Assembly: GCA_037445065.1 (NCBI GenBank)
Contig: JBBILD010000005.1
Coordinates: forward strand, 165,124 to 229,123
Direction: 5' to 3'
Origin: Myxococcales bacterium
GTDB lineage: Bacteria; Desulfobacterota; Binatia; HRBIN30
Length of the DNA: 64,000 nt
Numbering within the stretch: position 1 is the stretch's first letter; each line of letters starts with the position of its first letter. Below the pieces are notes generated by a model. The model was not told the DNA's origin. It searched no databases and saw only the letters and a list, made by a program, of their open reading frames with translations. The translations under genes were made by a program, and so were the position numbers. Shown here piece by piece: positions 30,174 through 45,323 of this stretch.

Positions 30174-30908
30174 GTGCGAGCGATGATTCTCGCGGCAGGC
30201 AAAGGAACGCGGCTCCGCCCCTGGACGGAGCATACCCCCAAGCCCCTTCTGGAGGTGGCCGGGCAACCCATGATCGTGCATGTGCTGGACATTCTCCGCC
30301 GCTCGGGGATCCGCGAGGCAGTGATCAATCTCCACCACCTCGGAGACCAGATTCGTAACCGCCTCGGCGACGGAAGCGCATTTGGAATGCGCCTCGAGTA
30401 TTCGGTCGAGCCCGAGTTGCTGGATACCGGAGGTGGCGTGGCGCGCGCGAGACGTTTTCTAGCCCGAGGGCCGTTCGCGGTGATCAACGCCGACGTGTAC
30501 TTCGAGGGGGATTTGTACGCCCTCGCGGCCCTGCACGAGGAGCGCCGCTCGCTGGTCACTCTGCTCGTGCGGCCGGATCCGGCAGGTGCACGCCGCGATG
30601 ACGTGCGGGTGGACGCCGCGGGCCGGGTGTGGAGCCTGCTCGGGCTGGGGCCGCATCCGGAACGTTGGCAACACTTGCCGCGCTACTTTTACGCCAGTGC
30701 CATGGTTTGCTCCCCTCGCCTGTTCGATTTTCTGCCCGAGGGGGTCTACAGCCTCACGCGCGACGTTCTGCCCCGCCTGTTGCGGGCTCGGGAGCCGGTG
30801 TATGCGCTCGAGCACCACGGGTATTGGCGGGTGCTCGATACCCCAGAAGACTTGGAAGAAGGCCGGCGCGAGATCCGCGCCAGAAAGGAGGCAGAAGGCA
30901 CCGCTTGA
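30174..30908 (+). CDS. murU: MurU-like sugar-phosphate nucleotidyltransferase
   Basis: AMILAAGKGTRLRPWT..TPKPLL, INLHHLG, LDTGGG, INADV. Confidence 0.8.
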   Translation: MRAMILAAGKGTRLRPWTEHTPKPLLEVAGQPMIVHVLDILRRSGIREAVINLHHLGDQIRNRLGDGSAFGMRLEYSVEPELLDTGGGVARARRFLARGPFAVINADVYFEGDLYALAALHEERRSLVTLLVRPDPAGARRDDVRVDAAGRVWSLLGLGPHPERWQHLPRYFYASAMVCSPRLFDFLPEGVYSLTRDVLPRLLRAREPVYALEHHGYWRVLDTPEDLEEGRREIRARKEAEGTA

Positions 30909-30963
30909 CAAGGCGCGTCATTCGGCGAAATTTTTGTCGCAAGCGGCTGCTTTCCGCACACGT

Positions 30964-32307
30964 ATGGGAATCACCATTGTCCAGAAAAGCGATCTCGGGC
31001 AGCGGAAACACAAGGCAAAAGTCGCGCTAGTCCTCGCCGGCGGCGCGGTCACAGGGGGAGGTTTCAAACTCGGCGGCCTGAAGGCGCTCGATGACTTCCT
31101 GGTGAACCGCAAAACGACCGACTTCGATACCTACGTTGGGCTCAGCGCGGGGGCGGTGCTTGCCGCACCGCTAGCCGCGGGCGTAAGCCCGGCGGAAATG
31201 ATGCGCAGCCTCACCGGCGAATCCGAGCACTTCAGCCCCCTCGAAGCGCTCGACTTTTATTATCCGAACATCCGCGAATTTCTGAGCCGGCCCGCGCAGT
31301 TCGCACTCGATCTGTTGCTGTACGTTCCGGGCCTGCTGGCCGATGTGCTCCGTTCGTTGCCGAAAGTACGGGCCCAATACGAGGACGCGTGGCAGCGCGT
31401 GTGGCGCGAGCCCTCCATGCAGAACTTAGAGCTCCTTCTGACCCCGCTCAGCTCTCTTCTTGCCCGCCAGCGCTCCTTGCCCTCGGTGCTCGACTACCTG
31501 CCCTCCGGCCTCTTCGACAACAGCCGCATCGAGCGCTACCTGCGGGAAAACTTCGAACGGGCCGGAGTGCCGAACAACTTCCCGGGCCTTTATCGCCTCA
31601 CACGGCGCGAGCTGTACATCAGCGCCATGAACCTGGACACGGCCGAGCGCGTGGTTTTTGGGCACGACGAAGACTCCTCCGTGACGATTTCCGAGGCGGT
31701 GCAAGCGTCCACCGCCTTGCCTGGCTTTTACAAGCCAGCCCGGATCCGCGGCGTGGACTACGTGGACGGCGGGGTGCGGCGCACCGCGAACATCGATGTT
31801 GCCATCGAGCACGGCGCCCAGCTCGTGATCTGTTACAACCCGTTTCGCCCCTTTCACAACCGCGTGCGACGAATCCGGGAAAATGGCTCGTACCGCATCG
31901 AAGGAACGCCGCTGGCCGACTTGGGTTTGCTCACGGTGATCAACCAGGTGTTCCGCACCCTACTGCATTCCCGCCTGCAGTACGGGCTGCGCCAGTACCA
32001 GGACGATCCGAACTTCCGCGGCGACATCGTGGTCATCGAACCCAAGGAAAGCGACCTGCACTTCTTCGAACTCAGCGCCTTGGCGTTCTGGCATCGGGTG
32101 GCAGCGGCGAATCATGGCTACCTCTCGGTGAGCGAATCCATCGAGCAAAACTACGACCTCATCAAACAGATTCTTGCCAGTTACGGGATCTCGATGACGC
32201 GCAAACAAGTACGCGCTGGGGTAGAGCGGATCCGCGAGGAAGGCGAGGAAACCGCCTCCGACGTGCTCACCGAGGAATCGCCGCGGCGCAACTTACGGGT
32301 CGCCTGA
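30964..32307 (+). CDS. Patatin-like phospholipase
   Basis: LVLAGGAVTG oxyanion loop, GLSAG nucleophile elbow, ASTALPG, YVDGG. Confidence 0.9.
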   Translation: MGITIVQKSDLGQRKHKAKVALVLAGGAVTGGGFKLGGLKALDDFLVNRKTTDFDTYVGLSAGAVLAAPLAAGVSPAEMMRSLTGESEHFSPLEALDFYYPNIREFLSRPAQFALDLLLYVPGLLADVLRSLPKVRAQYEDAWQRVWREPSMQNLELLLTPLSSLLARQRSLPSVLDYLPSGLFDNSRIERYLRENFERAGVPNNFPGLYRLTRRELYISAMNLDTAERVVFGHDEDSSVTISEAVQASTALPGFYKPARIRGVDYVDGGVRRTANIDVAIEHGAQLVICYNPFRPFHNRVRRIRENGSYRIEGTPLADLGLLTVINQVFRTLLHSRLQYGLRQYQDDPNFRGDIVVIEPKESDLHFFELSALAFWHRVAAANHGYLSVSESIEQNYDLIKQILASYGISMTRKQVRAGVERIREEGEETASDVLTEESPRRNLRVA

Positions 32308-39761: not shown

Positions 39762-40646
39762 ATGAACGCAGAGCAGCTACAACAAGCGATTCAGGTAGCG
39801 GTTGCGCGGCTCGAGGGCGAAAGCAAGCTGTGCCGGGCAGCGGTGCGTAGCCTCCGTCCCTTCTTGCGAGGCGGCGTGCTGGAAAGCCCGCCACGCTTGC
39901 GACGCGCGCTGCAAGGTCTCGCCAAACTCGGCGACGAGAATTTGCGCAAGCTGGAGCTAGCCTCCGTTCACGCCGCGCTCGAGCAGTGGAGCCAAGAGGC
40001 ACCGCAGCGGCTGCGTGCCGAGTTTGGTCGCCGCCTCAAAGACGCGTGCGCCCAGCGAGGGATTGCCTTCCGCGTCGTGCGGCACGAAGAGCCGTTGGAA
40101 GTGCGCATCCCACCCTTTTCGCTGCTGCTCGACTTCCAGCGCGGCCGCGCCACTTGGCAGTTTGCCCGCGAGCGCTTGCGCGAACTCGATCTCGACATTG
40201 CGCAGGTGTTCAAAGCCTACGACGCGTTGCGTAGCGAACTCGACTGGAAGGGGTTTTCGCCAGCGGATTTCCTTTCTCGCTGCTACCGGGCGTACTCCGA
40301 GGCCTTGTTCGCTCTCGGCAAGCAACGGGGGGAGCGGGTCGAGTTCGAGCACTTTCTCCCGCGGCTCGCGCTGCAGTTGCAACAGCGGAACTTCCTGCGC
40401 AACCCCCGGCAGAAGCTGTTCCGCGAATACTCGCGCGCGCACTTTGCGTACGACGTCTGGCGCCTGCAGCGCGCGGGCCAACTCTCGTACAACGGCTGGC
40501 GGCTCAACCTGGGGGTGGCCACCGGCGACAGCGCCCGGCAGCCGGAACGGGTGATTTACTTCGAAGACGGCGACGGCAACGGCGAGTACAAACTCACCGT
40601 CTTTTTTTCGCGCAGCGAAGTAGCAAGCACGGAGGTCAGCGCATGA
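39762..40646 (+). CDS. Uncharacterised 294-aa protein, first gene of the ATPase-ATPase-helicase module
   Basis: Helical N-terminus, alpha/beta C-terminus (YSRAHFAYDVWRL); no TM segment; ATGA overlap with the next gene. Confidence 0.85.
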   Translation: MNAEQLQQAIQVAVARLEGESKLCRAAVRSLRPFLRGGVLESPPRLRRALQGLAKLGDENLRKLELASVHAALEQWSQEAPQRLRAEFGRRLKDACAQRGIAFRVVRHEEPLEVRIPPFSLLLDFQRGRATWQFARERLRELDLDIAQVFKAYDALRSELDWKGFSPADFLSRCYRAYSEALFALGKQRGERVEFEHFLPRLALQLQQRNFLRNPRQKLFREYSRAHFAYDVWRLQRAGQLSYNGWRLNLGVATGDSARQPERVIYFEDGDGNGEYKLTVFFSRSEVASTEVSA

Positions 40647-41938
40647 ACAGGAACGGGCAAAATGGGCAGAGTGTGCAGATCCATCGCGAACTGGCGCAAC
40701 GGATCATCCATCGCATGGGCGAGACTGGGCAGCCCCCGGAGCGCGGTGCCTTGTACGTAAATGTCGGGACCGGGGATCTCTTGGAGACCCTGCGCGTGGA
40801 GTACCTGCGGCTCATTCGGGCAAGCGGCTTCAATTCGACCTTCAAGCTTGTCCAAGGACCGTTCGGGGCCGGCAAGTCTCACTTTTTATCCTGCTTCCGC
40901 GAAATCGCCTGGCAGGAAGGATTCGCCACCAGTTGGATCGGCGTGTCTCCGAAGGAGTGCCCGTTTTTCGAAATGGACAAGGTGTACCGCGAGGTGGCGC
41001 AGAAGATCGAGTTGCCGCCCGAAAACGAACTGGTGGAGCCCGACCGTGGGATCGACACGGTGCTGCGGCAGGTCGTGGAAAGGCGCCAGCAGGAGACCGA
41101 CCCTGAGGAGCTGCTCCACTGGTTGCGGAACGAATCTCTTCAAGCGCGTGTCGAAAGCCACGCTTGGCGCAAGGCCGCGTTCTTGTACATGGAGTGCCTG
41201 CTTCATCGCCGCTTCGAGCAAGCAGAACTGCTCGCACAGTGGTTGAGAGGCGACAAGGTCCCGCTGAGCGAGGTAGCGCGCTTCGGAGTGCGCGAAGAAC
41301 TCGATGAATCCACCGCTTTTCGCTGGTTGCGCAGCTTGGTCCAGTTTCTGCGGGTGGTGGATATCCCGGGTATCGTGTTGATGTTCGACGAGATGGACCG
41401 GGTGATGAGCGTGTCCCGGCGCCACCGAAAAGCCGTCGGTGACAACCTGCGCCAGCTCATTGACGCCTGCGGGCAAAGTACGCTGCCCGCTGCCGTGATG
41501 ATGTACGCTGCGCCCCCGGAATTCGTTGAACAAATTGTGCCCGAGTACCCGGCGCTCCAGCAACGCTTGAAAGTGACCGTGAAGTTTTCGGCCCATTTGC
41601 CTACGGCGCCGATCATTGACCTCGACCACTTGCCCTTGGAGCCGGTGGCGCTGTTCCGCGCCATCGGAGACCGGCTCATCGAGATTTACGCCGCTGCCTA
41701 CCCAGAAGCCGCGCTCGATCTCGCCTTGCAAAGAAAAAACATGGCTGCGCTCGCAACCCTCATGGGGCCGGAACAATTAGAAGCGAGCCATCGCCGCCTG
41801 TTCGTGCGCGCGGCTGTGTCCCTGCTCGTCGAGCAACACCACAACCGGCAACGGGAATTGGACGACGAGGAGCTGCGCACCCTGGCTGGATCCGCGCAAG
41901 CGGCGAGCCCGCGACTGGAGGGTGAGGAGGTCTTCTGA
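40643..41938 (+). CDS. BrxD/DUF2791-like P-loop ATPase (copy 1)
   Basis: N-terminal GQPP..G...VNVG, FKLVQGPFGAGKSHFL Walker A, VYREV, IVLMFDEMD Walker B, YPALQQRL. Confidence 0.8.
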   Translation: MNRNGQNGQSVQIHRELAQRIIHRMGETGQPPERGALYVNVGTGDLLETLRVEYLRLIRASGFNSTFKLVQGPFGAGKSHFLSCFREIAWQEGFATSWIGVSPKECPFFEMDKVYREVAQKIELPPENELVEPDRGIDTVLRQVVERRQQETDPEELLHWLRNESLQARVESHAWRKAAFLYMECLLHRRFEQAELLAQWLRGDKVPLSEVARFGVREELDESTAFRWLRSLVQFLRVVDIPGIVLMFDEMDRVMSVSRRHRKAVGDNLRQLIDACGQSTLPAAVMMYAAPPEFVEQIVPEYPALQQRLKVTVKFSAHLPTAPIIDLDHLPLEPVALFRAIGDRLIEIYAAAYPEAALDLALQRKNMAALATLMGPEQLEASHRRLFVRAAVSLLVEQHHNRQRELDDEELRTLAGSAQAASPRLEGEEVF

Positions 41939-43299
41939 TGCAACCGGGCGACGTAGTTGTGCACGCCCTCTACGGTCGTGGCACAGTGCAATGCCTGATT
42001 GCCGGTAGCCGCGCTAGCGTGCGCTTCGAACGGTTGCCTTCCCTGCCGCGCACGGTGCACCTCAACGAACTGAGCCTCGACGGACAATCACCGAAGCAGC
42101 GCAACGAGTCCATCGTTGCCCCTCCCGTTTCACCCGCCACCGCCACCCGCGAGATTCCCGTCGTCGGCCACGAAACTGGCGAGCTGCGTCAGCTCATCGA
42201 GGCCTTGCGCCTGGGCACGGTGCCGCCGTTTCGCCTGAAAGAGTACACGGTGGGGCGCGAAAAACCGTTCTGCCGCATTCAGGAACTCTTCCAACTCGCG
42301 CAAGGGATGGAACTGGTCTTCGGCGACTACGGAGCGGGCAAAACCCACTTTCTCGACCTGGTGGAGCAGGAAGCTCGGAACTCGAGCTATCTCACCAGCC
42401 GGGTGGTGCTCGACCCTCACGAAACGCCTCTCAGCCACCCGCAGCGTTTATGGCGAGCCATTGTCGCCTCGCTGCGCTACCCGGGGAACGAATCCCGACA
42501 AGGGGTCGTGCCCCTGTTCGTACGGCTGCAGTCGAGTTCCGAACACTTGTACCCCAGTGGCCGCCGCTTTCATCGCTTTCTCTCGCCGGCACTGTGGGCC
42601 TTTCGCTCCGGCTCTGCCGACGCCTGGGGTTGGTTTCAAGATTACATCGAGGGCTACCCCATGGACGTGGGCGCCCTGAACAGCGTACTCAGCTCGGTGG
42701 GATGGCCCGGCCCGCGCGCACTGGCACTCTCTGACTTCCGTACCTTCGGGCGCGTGTACGTGTACTTGGCCGGCGGGCTTGCCGCCTGGGCCGCTGATGC
42801 TGGTTTTCGGGGCGCGTGCCTGCTGTTCGACGAAGCCGAACAAATCGGTGGCTTCGACGCCACGCACCGCCAATTGGCAGAGGAGGTGATCCGCCACTAC
42901 GCGGCGGCAACGCTCCCCGAGGGCGACCTCCTGTTCGTTCCCGATGAGCTGTACCGCGGCGGGCGCCAGGTGCATCGAGAGTTGCCGCTGCGCTTCGACG
43001 AAGAGCAGCCGTTGGTCGTTTTGCTCGCTTTAACGCCCGAGCCGAGCATGCTGGAGTTGTGCGACCGTTTGGTGAGCGGGCACAAAATCGAACTCGCCCC
43101 ACTCGGAGCGCGGCATCTGAGCGAGCTGGTGGAGCGCGTGTGCGACTTGTACCTGCGCGCCTACCCCGGGGGCACTCTGCCCAAGAAGTGCCTCGCCCAC
43201 GCCCCTGCCTGGTACCAAACCCCGCGTGAACTGGTGCGCGAACTCATCGCCCGGCTCGACGCACATCGTTACGGGATATCCGCTGACTCCGCTTCATGA
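41938..43299 (+). CDS. BrxD/DUF2791-like P-loop ATPase (copy 2) with N-terminal Tudor-like domain
   Basis: IEALRLGTVP...VGRE, GDYGAGKTHFL Walker A, LLFDEAE Walker B, TPRELVR; N-terminus PGDVVVHALYGRGTV. Confidence 0.8.
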   Translation: MQPGDVVVHALYGRGTVQCLIAGSRASVRFERLPSLPRTVHLNELSLDGQSPKQRNESIVAPPVSPATATREIPVVGHETGELRQLIEALRLGTVPPFRLKEYTVGREKPFCRIQELFQLAQGMELVFGDYGAGKTHFLDLVEQEARNSSYLTSRVVLDPHETPLSHPQRLWRAIVASLRYPGNESRQGVVPLFVRLQSSSEHLYPSGRRFHRFLSPALWAFRSGSADAWGWFQDYIEGYPMDVGALNSVLSSVGWPGPRALALSDFRTFGRVYVYLAGGLAAWAADAGFRGACLLFDEAEQIGGFDATHRQLAEEVIRHYAAATLPEGDLLFVPDELYRGGRQVHRELPLRFDEEQPLVVLLALTPEPSMLELCDRLVSGHKIELAPLGARHLSELVERVCDLYLRAYPGGTLPKKCLAHAPAWYQTPRELVRELIARLDAHRYGISADSAS

Positions 43300-45323
43300 A
43301 CTCCGCGCGTAGCGAATTACCGCGTGCGTTTGCTGCCTTCTTTGGCCGCTTCGGGCGCCTAAAACCGGTTCAAGAGCGCGCCATCCCTTCCATCCTTGCG
43401 GGTGACGACGTGCTGATTGTCGCGCCCACGGCAACCGGCAAAACCGAGGCCTACGCGGCTCCACTTGCGGAACGCTACCTCGCCAGCCCCGCCCCCGCGG
43501 GTGCACCGCACGCGATCTTTGTGGCGCCCACCCGGGCGCTCACCAACGATCTCTTCCGTCGCCTCGCGCCCCCCTTCGAACACCTCGGGATCTCCTTCGG
43601 GCGGTACACCGGCGAGCACAGGGAGCGCGCTGAAGGCTCGCTCCCTGCGTTTGTCGTGACGACACCGGAGGCATTGGATGCCCTCCTGGCGCGCCGCGCG
43701 CAAACCTTGGCCGCCGTGCGCGCGGTGGTGGTGGATGAGCTGCATATCCTCGACAACACCCCACGCGGAGACCAGCTCCGCTTCCTCCTGCATCGCCTGA
43801 GCCAACTGGTTCGACTCCCGCTGCAGCGGCTTGCTGCAAGCGCCACCGTGAGCGAGCCGCAAGTGGTCGCGCAGCGCTACTTGGAAAGCCCGCAGGTCAT
43901 CGAAGAGCATAGCGGCCAGCGGATGGTACGCGCGCGCTGCTTTCCGGGGCGCGATCCGCATGATGTGGCTCAACACCTGAACGAGTTGGCGACTGCCGGT
44001 TTTCGCAAGATCCTGATCTTCGTGAACTCGCGCAAAGACGTCGAGCTGCTGGCGAGCTACCTCAACCAACACAGCCGCTTCCGCGACGCCGTGTTTCCCC
44101 ACCACGGCTCCCTCTCGCGCACCACTCGCCTGCGTACCGAGGAACGCTTTCAACAAGCCGGGGCGGCGGTCGCAGTGGCGACCCTCACTCTGGAGCTGGG
44201 CATTGACATCGGCACCGTAGACTACGTGCTCCTGTGCGGGGTCCCACCCAACATCTCGAGCCTCTTGCAGCGCATCGGACGGGGTAGCCGACGCAGTGGG
44301 CAGATCCGCGTTGGCTACGCCTGCGCGCATCGCGGAGAAGAGTTTCTCTACCGCTTCTTCTTGCAGAAAGGAGTGCGGGGAGAGCTGTACCCTCCTGCCT
44401 ACGCCTTGCGCACCAGCGTGCTTGTGCAGCAAGCACTCACCATTGCCGGCGCGGAACACTTCGTGACGGTGCCCCGCCTTCGCCAGATCCTCCCCCCCGC
44501 TCTGGCGCCCGCATTTCCTCCCGAGCGCTTGCGCAGGATCCTCGACTTCCTGGTGGAACACGAACTCCTCGAGCCGCCACGCCTGGGGCGGTACGTGCTC
44601 GGCCCGAAAGGAGAAAGCAGGTACGAGTACGGGCGGATTCATTCCAATATCGAGGACCCCGGCGGGGTCACGGTGGTGGATCGAATCAGCGGCGAGATCC
44701 TGGGCATGGTCGACTACCGGCACTTGGACGGCACCGAATTCAGTCTCGCCGGGCGAAGGCGCCGACCGTACGCCATCCAGGCAGATCGAATCCTTACCGA
44801 TCCAAAGGAGGCGTGTGCAGATACCGTCTTCCCCGTCGTCCAGGCTCCGCAAGTGAGCTTTTCTCTCGCTCGGGCCGTTGCGGCCGAGCTAGGAGCTGGG
44901 CCCAACGAGATGCTGGTGGCGCGCCGCGGTGATCACTGGCTCGTGTTGCACGGCCTGGGATCTTGCGAGGCGAAGCTGGTGTTTACCGGGCCGGAAGTGG
45001 CAGTCCGCTCCCCGTACCTGGTGGCTCTTGCCTCCCGCCCGCATGAGCCGCCGCGGCCTTCCGCACGCGAACTTGGCCAGCGAGTGAGCGAACAACTCGA
45101 GGAGTTGGAGAAAGCTCTGGCGATGGGTTGCTACCGCCGGTTCCTCCCCCAACAAGAACGGATTCAGGCCGTCGCCGAAGCCCTCGCCTTGGAGCAGCTG
45201 ACCGCCTTTTTGGAGGCAGCCCAACTTCGCATCGTGCCTGGCGAAGCGCCGAGCCTGTGGGCCAACCTGCTCCGCGTCCACGCAGAACTCCTGTCGAGCC
45301 AGCGCACGCACCTGCGGGTTTAG
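43296..45323 (+). CDS. Lhr/BrxHI-like SF2 DEAD/DEAH-box helicase (short form)
   Basis: Q motif LKPVQERAIP, APTATGKTE, APTRALTND, TTPEALD, VDELH, SAT, IFVNSR, HHGSLS, TLELGIDIG, QRIGRG. Confidence 0.88.
   Translation: MNSARSELPRAFAAFFGRFGRLKPVQERAIPSILAGDDVLIVAPTATGKTEAYAAPLAERYLASPAPAGAPHAIFVAPTRALTNDLFRRLAPPFEHLGISFGRYTGEHRERAEGSLPAFVVTTPEALDALLARRAQTLAAVRAVVVDELHILDNTPRGDQLRFLLHRLSQLVRLPLQRLAASATVSEPQVVAQRYLESPQVIEEHSGQRMVRARCFPGRDPHDVAQHLNELATAGFRKILIFVNSRKDVELLASYLNQHSRFRDAVFPHHGSLSRTTRLRTEERFQQAGAAVAVATLTLELGIDIGTVDYVLLCGVPPNISSLLQRIGRGSRRSGQIRVGYACAHRGEEFLYRFFLQKGVRGELYPPAYALRTSVLVQQALTIAGAEHFVTVPRLRQILPPALAPAFPPERLRRILDFLVEHELLEPPRLGRYVLGPKGESRYEYGRIHSNIEDPGGVTVVDRISGEILGMVDYRHLDGTEFSLAGRRRRPYAIQADRILTDPKEACADTVFPVVQAPQVSFSLARAVAAELGAGPNEMLVARRGDHWLVLHGLGSCEAKLVFTGPEVAVRSPYLVALASRPHEPPRPSARELGQRVSEQLEELEKALAMGCYRRFLPQQERIQAVAEALALEQLTAFLEAAQLRIVPGEAPSLWANLLRVHAELLSSQRTHLRV

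Follow-up and report, generated by a model that had tools for sequence, protein, structure and literature searches.

A PcrA/UvrD-type Tudor domain at the N-terminus of a BrxD-like ATPase, a candidate docking module for RNA polymerase

Introduction

BrxD-type ATPases and BrxHI/Lhr-like helicases belong to the most poorly understood components of type 2 BREX and Shango. In type 2 BREX (Pgl), they form the BrxD-BrxHI dyad, i.e. an ORC/Cdc6-type ATPase gene adjoins that of a Ski2/Lhr-like helicase, and a recent BREX domain survey presents BrxD as an ATPase that stands alone and carries no additional domains (PMC12839542). Shango (SngABC) likewise comprises a small protein, a DUF2791/BrxD-like ATPase, and an Lhr-like helicase. 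Here we describe a cassette of four overlapping or abutting + strand genes in a 64,000 nt stretch of DNA of a Myxococcales bacterium (GenBank assembly GCA_037445065.1, contig JBBILD010000005.1, positions 165,124 to 229,123), which was analysed at its full length and is called “the window” below. The genes are, in this order, P0004 (a protein of no known family), P0002 and P0001 (two BrxD-like ATPases), and P0003 (a BrxHI/SngC/Lhr-like helicase). The subject of this report is the N-terminal domain of P0001, a Tudor domain of the PcrA/UvrD type.

The cassette differs from type 2 BREX in that its ATPase occurs as two paralogues, of which one carries a Tudor domain, and in that the BREX core genes are absent from the window, where PglZ, PglX, PglW, and BrxC were not found. 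In comparison with Shango, the ATPase is duplicated and the Tudor domain is added. The PADLOC SngB matches of the two ATPases are weak (E-values of 8e-17 and 2e-6), the first gene, P0004, has no SngA or TerB match in Pfam or PADLOC, and P0003 reaches 216 bits on the SngC model, whereas the true SngC genes of the phylum reach 830-940 bits.

The Tudor domain of PcrA, UvrD, and UvrD1 (PF21196; structures 5dma, 6yi2, 7egs, 7egt, and 9dqs) is a five-stranded barrel of about 50 residues, as is that of P0001. The two share the β1-β2 signature G-[DE]-x-V-x-H-x-x-[aromatic]-G-x-G-x-V, the V-x-F strand, and a terminal position in the chain, next to a disordered linker. They differ in that the domain is located at the C-terminus of a superfamily 1 helicase in PcrA/UvrD and at the N-terminus of an AAA+ ATPase in P0001, in that strand β4 reads G-x-K-[KR]-L in the former and LPRTV in the latter, and in that the Pfam model misses P0001. 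The RNA polymerase (RNAP) interaction domains (RIDs) of CarD and Mfd (TRCF; PF02559) belong to the same fold class and have a similar β1-β2 turn, but the likeness to P0001 does not extend past the first 20 residues. On RNAP, the CarD/Mfd domains associate with the β1 domain by strand addition, at a site unlike that of UvrD/PcrA (PMC8318588, PMC5397179). N-terminal Tudor domains on defence- or RNAP-linked motors have also been described for RapA and for BrxHII and the BREX-related Swi2/Snf2 helicases; the likeness to P0001 concerns the described architecture, as these domains sit on Swi2/Snf2 helicases and not on an ATPase (PMC12839542).

Neither a Tudor-BrxD fusion nor the four-gene cassette was found in the literature searched. 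In the Tudor-BrxD-like ATPase, known parts are combined in a new architecture, and the cassette to which it belongs is both undescribed and widespread.

Results

The N-terminal domain of P0001

P0001 is the third gene of the cassette, and its translation opens with MQPGDVVVHALYGRGTVQCLIAGSRASVRFERLPSLPRTVHLNELSLDG. The features of the gene that are discussed in this section are as follows.

41938..43299, + strand: P0001, second BrxD-like ATPase, 453 amino acids (aa), Tudor-bearing, PF10923
41924..41930, + strand: Shine-Dalgarno-like GAGGAGG, 7 bases 5′ of the P0001 ATG, from direct reading of the sequence
41938..42081, + strand: PcrA/UvrD-type Tudor domain, P0001 residues 1-48, from AlphaFold2, family profile, hhalign, and Foldseek
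42082..42177, + strand: flexible Pro/Ser/Ala/Thr-rich linker, P0001 residues 49-80, from reading of the sequence
42178..43299, + strand: BrxD-like ORC/Cdc6-type AAA+ core, Walker A GAGKT at residues 132-136, Walker B DE at residues 298-299

A preliminary description of this DNA, which was made from the letters alone, had assigned positions 41938-42075 (residues 1-46 of P0001) to a PcrA/UvrD-type Tudor domain related to the CarD/Mfd RID. The N-terminal sequence and the pattern GDxVxHxx(F/W/Y)GxGxV...VxF that it quoted are found exactly in the translation, i.e. G4, D5, V7, H9, Y12, G13, G15, and V17, followed by V28 and F30. The linker that it placed ahead of the ATPase core is also present and reads GQSPKQRNESIVAPPVSPATATREIPVVGHETG, about 30 residues rich in Pro, Ser, Ala, and Thr.

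The conservation of the domain was studied with an alignment of 30 rows, composed of P0001 and 29 relatives from a word-indexed search. The domain is kept in all 30 rows; H9, G13, and G15 are invariant, and G4, V7, F30, L36, P37, T39, and V40 are conserved at 90% or higher. An exhaustive search yielded 991 representatives (at 50% identity) that match P0001 with an E-value of at most 0.001. The preliminary description had regarded absence of the domain from homologous second ATPases as a refutation, but most of these proteins have the domain. The Tudor domain was found in 111 of 131 homologues, namely the stored ones that hold the helix opening the ATPase core, and it always starts within the first 20 residues. 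It is also present in 68 of 80 related loci, a set kept from 244 relatives in species genomes, which had been confirmed among 499 pattern matches; 2 of the 12 loci that lack it are cut by a contig end. The linker is not alignable between homologues. In the 111 Tudor-bearing proteins its length ranges from 16 to 147 residues, with a median of 42, and it is rich in A, P, R, E, and S. The PcrA Tudor is also joined through a long disordered linker (PMC8318588), and the location of the P0001 domain at the chain end on a low-complexity linker is as in the PcrA/UvrD architecture.

The structure was predicted with AlphaFold2 from the 30-row alignment. The model is a five-stranded barrel with strands at residues 6-9, 13-21, 25-30, 38-41, and 45-47 and a mean predicted local distance difference test score (pLDDT) of 91, in agreement with the Tudor/SH3-like fold that had been proposed. 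When the family profile was compared with all PDB sequences, the first eight rows were C-terminal Tudor domains of UvrD, PcrA, or UvrD1, with E-values of 8.9e-8 for 7egt_B, 1.1e-5 for 9dqs_A, 1.8e-5 for 7egs_B, 2.2e-5 for 6yi2_A, and 1.3e-3 for 5dma_A. CarD (0.025-0.12) and the Mfd RID (0.16) ranked below these rows. The same order was obtained with hhalign against 14 UvrD Tudors and 30 Mfd RIDs, all collected from genomes of the same phylum as the window: the values were 97.1%, P 5.9e-11, and 33 columns for the UvrD Tudors, and 78.5%, P 1.7e-5, and 20 columns for the Mfd RIDs. For comparison, 30 column-shuffled alignments gave at best 0.8% and P 0.068. In the host genome, the Tudor domain of the resident UvrD is the second-best match of the family profile (E 0.003), after the domain itself.

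Structural comparisons place the model in the same fold class. The top Foldseek match is 7egt_B, the C-terminal domain (CTD) of UvrD (template modelling scores of 0.73/0.77, 30% identity), followed by 9dqs_A, the UvrD1 Tudor. With VIA-align, the highest identity was found for 7egt_D (31%, Z 7.2, root-mean-square deviation 1.4 across 45 residues), and the Z values for 7egt, 7egs, and 5dma are 6.9-7.2, but the best match is a PWWP domain bound to single-stranded DNA (ssDNA), with a Z of 8.4. Values from 6.4 to 8.4 are all tied among small barrels of the Tudor, KOW, and PWWP type, from which UvrD-type domains are not separable. The fold search alone was thus rejected as a classifier, as it does not tell UvrD-type Tudors from KOW, PWWP, and chromo barrels.

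Searches with the single P0001 sequence are less informative than those with the family profile. The only Pfam matches are CarD_TRCF_RID (13.3 bits, E 0.09, residues 2-20) and DUF3553 (11.7 bits, E 0.21), both below the cut-off; the gathering cut-offs are 23 bits for CarD_TRCF_RID (PF02559) and 23.9 bits for PF21196. A phmmer search of the PDB with the single domain sequence yielded only an unrelated polyketide synthase (E 0.75). As the single sequence is below every Pfam cut-off, the Tudor assignment rests on the family profile. Taken together with the predicted barrel, the profile results confirm that residues 1-48 of P0001 are a Tudor/SH3-like barrel, of which the C-terminal Tudors of UvrD/PcrA are the nearest relatives by profile. 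They also support the view that the CarD/Mfd RIDs are related, as had been stated before, yet more distantly than UvrD/PcrA.

Another small protein with this motif is encoded elsewhere in the host genome. A stand-alone small open reading frame (ORF) outside the window (G000:C3:199749-200027, - strand) contains the motif GDRVVH...WGEGVV. Its matches to PF21196 (14.7 bits) and to the family profile (E 0.07) are both weak, and it may encode a DUF3553-like free Tudor protein.

RNA polymerase as a candidate partner

The site of the PcrA Tudor on RNAP is a β-hairpin of the SI1 insert of RpoB (Urrutia-Irazabal et al., PMC8318588). The helicase interaction motif of this hairpin, [VIL]-D-x-x-T-G-E-[VIL]-[VILT], also occurs in UvrB, and UvrB competes with RNAP (PMC8318588). 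The host RpoB contains the hairpin VVDPVTGEVIG at residues 308-318, which is the sole strict match to the motif in a credible gene of the host genome. When Ser was allowed at the Thr position, the six-frame translation of the host genome (4.1 million open-frame residues) contained four matches, i.e. RpoB, the cassette helicase P0003 (VVDRISGEILG), an open frame of 679 aa, and a low-complexity frame that is not gene-like. From such motifs, we take the 679-aa frame to be a penicillin-binding protein. RpoB was also searched for in five other hosts of the cassette: three have the canonical TGE hairpin, one has VVLKTGEVL, and in one the gene is cut by the contig end.

Four PcrA exchanges, H681A, W684A, K712A, and L714A, each nearly abolish the pull-down of RNAP (Sanders et al., PMC5397179). 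H681 and W684, which belong to the HxxWGxG turn, align confidently with H9 and position 12 of P0001. Position 12 is Y in 11, H in 8, F in 5, and W in 3 of the 30 rows, so that one of these four residues is found in 27 of them. Because H9 and the aromatic position 12 are kept and the host RpoB has a perfect TGE hairpin, docking of the P0001 Tudor to RNAP is plausible. Half of the known RNAP-binding face appears to be kept, and the other half seems to be replaced by a signature specific to this family.

Several observations weigh against RNAP as the partner, or against too close an equation with UvrD. The first group concerns strand 4, where the G-x-K-[KR]-L of the 14 UvrD Tudors, which holds K712 and L714 in PcrA and K708 in UvrD, is replaced by the family-specific L-P-R-T-V. 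An ungapped register puts R38 two positions past the UvrD lysine, the register of R38 and V40 is uncertain, and residue 38 is basic in just 22 of the 30 rows; LPRTV may or may not do the same job as the K712/L714 strand of PcrA. The second group concerns the profile comparisons. The confident HH alignment ends at residue 33 and covers strands 1-3; PF21196 does not match residues 1-81 of P0001 at an E-value of up to 10, and a PF21196 scan of the host genome (E up to 1) does not have the P0001 Tudor among its matches. The family members match PF21196 in 19 and CarD_TRCF_RID in 20 of 30 cases, all weakly (for PF21196 at an E-value of up to 1, 6.9e-4 at best). Third, the domain is not universal in the cassettes: it is missing in 10 of the 78 loci with a complete N-terminus, and some cassettes carry DUF3293 in its place. 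Fourth, UvrD-type Tudors have several partners, including RNAP, UvrB, and other carriers of the motif (PMC8318588), and they bind DNA weakly (10.1101/2020.07.06.189035), so that homology to them does not fix a partner.

Two side observations concern the hairpin. The host UvrB, which is encoded outside the window (G000:C2:22363-24333, - strand), has the degenerate hairpin IDPFRGR without the TGE triad, so that the Tudor of the resident UvrD may not engage UvrB in the canonical manner in this host. In addition, the regular expression D-x-x-[TS]-G-[ED] was unmatched in 4 of 15 RpoB lobe fragments of the phylum (L141, L147, L149, and L150), so that the docking hairpin may not be universal in the phylum.

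Proposed role of the Tudor domain and alternatives

We infer that the domain binds a protein. In the proposed mechanism, the Tudor domain on its disordered linker would be a protein-docking adaptor for the cassette, i.e. for two ORC/Cdc6-type AAA+ ATPases and an Lhr/BrxHI-like helicase. Its most likely partner would be an exposed TGE β-hairpin on the lobe/SI1 of RNAP β, the site of the UvrD/PcrA Tudors, and docking at the RpoB hairpin would recruit both ATPases and the helicase to transcription complexes. A tethered docking adaptor with RNAP β as its partner is the best single candidate, which we favour tentatively, at somewhat less than even chances. The partner is probably located outside the cassette, because there are Tudor-bearing loci without a helicase (L059, L073, L074, and L076) and because the Tudor is kept in the single-chain proteins P0147 and P0165, in which the helicase is covalently attached. 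A more specific version is a machine for transcription-coupled surveillance: through the Tudor, the heteromeric ATPase pair and the Lhr-type RNA:DNA helicase would be stationed at the SI1/lobe hairpin of RNAP, where they would compete with UvrD for its site, and the complex would act on R-loops or stalled complexes, or would detect the takeover of RNAP by a phage. We consider this version unlikely.

The Tudor domain of this large BrxD sister family provides the first tangible clue to the site of recruitment of such a module. If the partner is RNAP, ATPase-helicase modules of this class would be linked to transcription complexes; otherwise, the domain would still be a ready bait for the real partner.

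The best-surviving alternative is that the domain docks onto another protein, a host factor or a phage protein, via the LPRTV face, and that this binding would trigger or recruit the ATPase pair. The near-invariant strand β4 (L36, P37, T39, and V40), which is unlike its UvrD counterpart, is compatible with this view, as is the description of UvrD/PcrA Tudors as promiscuous hubs (PMC8318588; 10.1101/2020.07.06.189035). The N-terminal module also seems to be exchangeable, since P0106 and P0115, two homologues of the second ATPase, carry an N-terminal DUF3293 instead of the Tudor; Tudor, DUF3293, or nothing at this position is usual for sensor or adaptor domains. However, no candidate for such a partner emerged, and the residues that PcrA uses for RNAP, H9 and the aromatic position 12, are kept. 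The 179 pattern matches on viral contigs did not include a confirmed relative, and no conserved extra gene accompanies the Tudor in the 80 loci. We regard another protein as the partner as rather unlikely, but as a live alternative.

Alternatively, the Tudor could bind nucleic acid, i.e. DNA, RNA, or an RNA:DNA hybrid, and would help to position both ATPases and the helicase at their substrate. The CTD of E. coli UvrD binds ssDNA at 3.8 µM and double-stranded DNA at 1.9 µM, but the same preprint reports no DNA binding for PcrA-CTD (10.1101/2020.07.06.189035). The domain and the linker are rich in Arg. The ssDNA-bound PWWP domain at the top of the VIA-align matches would also fit, but with the tied Z values of all small barrels it is no indication of function, and the aromatic cage of UvrD (W709 and Y714) has no clear counterpart in P0001. 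We count nucleic acid, although improbable as the ligand, among the live alternatives.

The third alternative is that the Tudor grips a hairpin of the cassette's own helicase, which would mimic the RpoB/UvrB motif, and that it would tether or gate the helicase in this way. The hairpin in question is the following.

44676..44708, + strand: hairpin-like motif VVDRISGEILG, P0003 residues 461-471, which resembles the helicase interaction motif of RpoB/UvrB

That P0003 holds one of just four loose matches in the host genome speaks for this alternative, and so does the consensus VVDRLTG[DE]V[VI]G, which is kept in most of the cassette helicases. In none of the 56 loci that have both features is a basic residue 38 combined with a non-acidic hairpin (raw counts 31/0/14/11). 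This co-variation was rejected as evidence, because the tree of the ATPase core shows three changes of acidity and thus three independent contrasts, which have no statistical power. In addition, the motif is missing from the hairpins of four Tudor-bearing cassettes of the phylum, which read e.g. VIEATTQKSIG and VVNQLNNEVLG, and it recurs as IVDENTGELIG in an unrelated helicase of about 1000 aa. Tudor and helicase each occur without the other, as the helicase-bearing loci L015/L019/L029, L021, and L088 lack the Tudor, and the ATPase-helicase fusions keep the Tudor. We consider a grip on the cassette's own helicase very unlikely. Given that other Tudor-bearing cassettes have lost the motif and that unrelated helicases share it, the hairpin is probably a structural feature of the barrel after the helicase core; in a comparison of the helicase-family profile with the PDB, the hairpin region was not aligned with Lhr.

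The last alternative, a chance resemblance or a mis-called start without a folded domain, could appeal to the single sequence being below all curated thresholds, but it has a negligible probability in view of the conservation at the protein level in 30 of 30 homologues and 68 of 80 loci, the pLDDT of 91, the profile E-value of 8.9e-8, and the Shine-Dalgarno sequence and translational coupling that mark the ATG of P0001.

The gene cassette

The other genes of the cassette are as follows.

39762..40646, + strand: P0004, first gene of the cassette, 294 aa, no known family
40643..41938, + strand: P0002, first BrxD-like ATPase, 431 aa, without a Tudor domain, PF10923
43296..45323, + strand: P0003, BrxHI/SngC/Lhr-like superfamily 2 helicase, 675 aa, last gene of the cassette, DEAD and Helicase_C

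The ATG of P0001 shares one base with the stop codon of P0002 (TGATG, 41936-41940), and the start of P0003 overlaps the stop codon of P0001 by four bases. The two ATPases are distant paralogues with 31% identity across 59 residues. P0002 matches PF10923 (BrxC_BrxD) with 134.6 bits over residues 15-405 and PADLOC BrxD with an E-value of 2e-32, and reaches 111 bits on the NCBIfam model BREX_BrxD (NF033438), compared to a cut-off of 350; a search with the Tudor hidden Markov model found no match in this protein. For P0001, the respective values are 69.4 bits (cut-off 22.2), with a match that begins at residue 83, an E-value of 1e-16, and 60.4 bits, again far below the cut-off of 350. Its core residues G132, G134, K135, D298, and E299 are invariant in the homologue alignment. 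The helicase P0003 matches BrxHI (E 1.2e-73) and SngC (E 1.2e-66) in PADLOC, and its best solved relative is the mycobacterial Lhr, 5v9x. P0004 has no match in Pfam, PADLOC, or NCBIfam, and an Atlas search retrieved only clusters of hypothetical proteins.

Distribution and variants of the cassette

According to the record titles, most hosts of the 80 loci belong to the Planctomycetota and Myxococcota, and a smaller number to the Gemmatimonadota, Bradymonadia, Riflebacteria, and other groups. Within the window's phylum, the ATPase was found in 8 of 201 genomes, showing that the cassette is accessory and patchy. The gene order across the loci is unknown protein, ATPase 1, ATPase 2, and helicase. 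In nearly all loci, a counterpart of P0004 occupies the syntenic position ahead of the ATPases, and the helicase is present in 67.

Cassettes of three genes without the helicase were found at seven loci. In four of these (L068, L072, L078, and L083), the Tudor is missing as well, and an OPT transporter gene follows the cassette. The other three (L073, L074, and L076) keep the Tudor, and the cassette of L073 is followed by the gene of a 1610-aa protein of no known family. Three further proteins, P0147 (965 aa), P0165 (959 aa), and P0084 (646 aa), are fusions of a BrxD-like ATPase and a DEAD helicase in a single chain; the N-terminal Tudor is kept in P0147 and P0165. As Rosetta-stone cases, these fusions support the suggestion of a physical cooperation between the second ATPase and the helicase.

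A search for defence genes around related loci was performed with 64 flank ORFs from 25 loci, a subset of 268 picked from the related loci. PADLOC matched four of these ORFs, i.e. three generic Ser/Thr kinases and one dGTPase. As no defence neighbours were seen in the window or in the related loci examined, it is solely the likeness to BrxD, BrxHI, and Sng proteins that suggests a phage-defence system.

In the window, 13 of the 15 flanking ORFs have a Pfam match, and all 13 are housekeeping or metabolic genes. The flank products include isoleucyl-tRNA synthetase, kinase-like and patatin-like proteins, thiolase, an M48 peptidase, a HAD hydrolase, a CoA-transferase, Usp, FolD, and glycine-cleavage proteins. 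The gene of the patatin-like phospholipase, for which no link to the cassette was seen, encodes 573 aa and is located amid housekeeping genes about 7 kb 5′ of the cassette (window 30586-32307, + strand).

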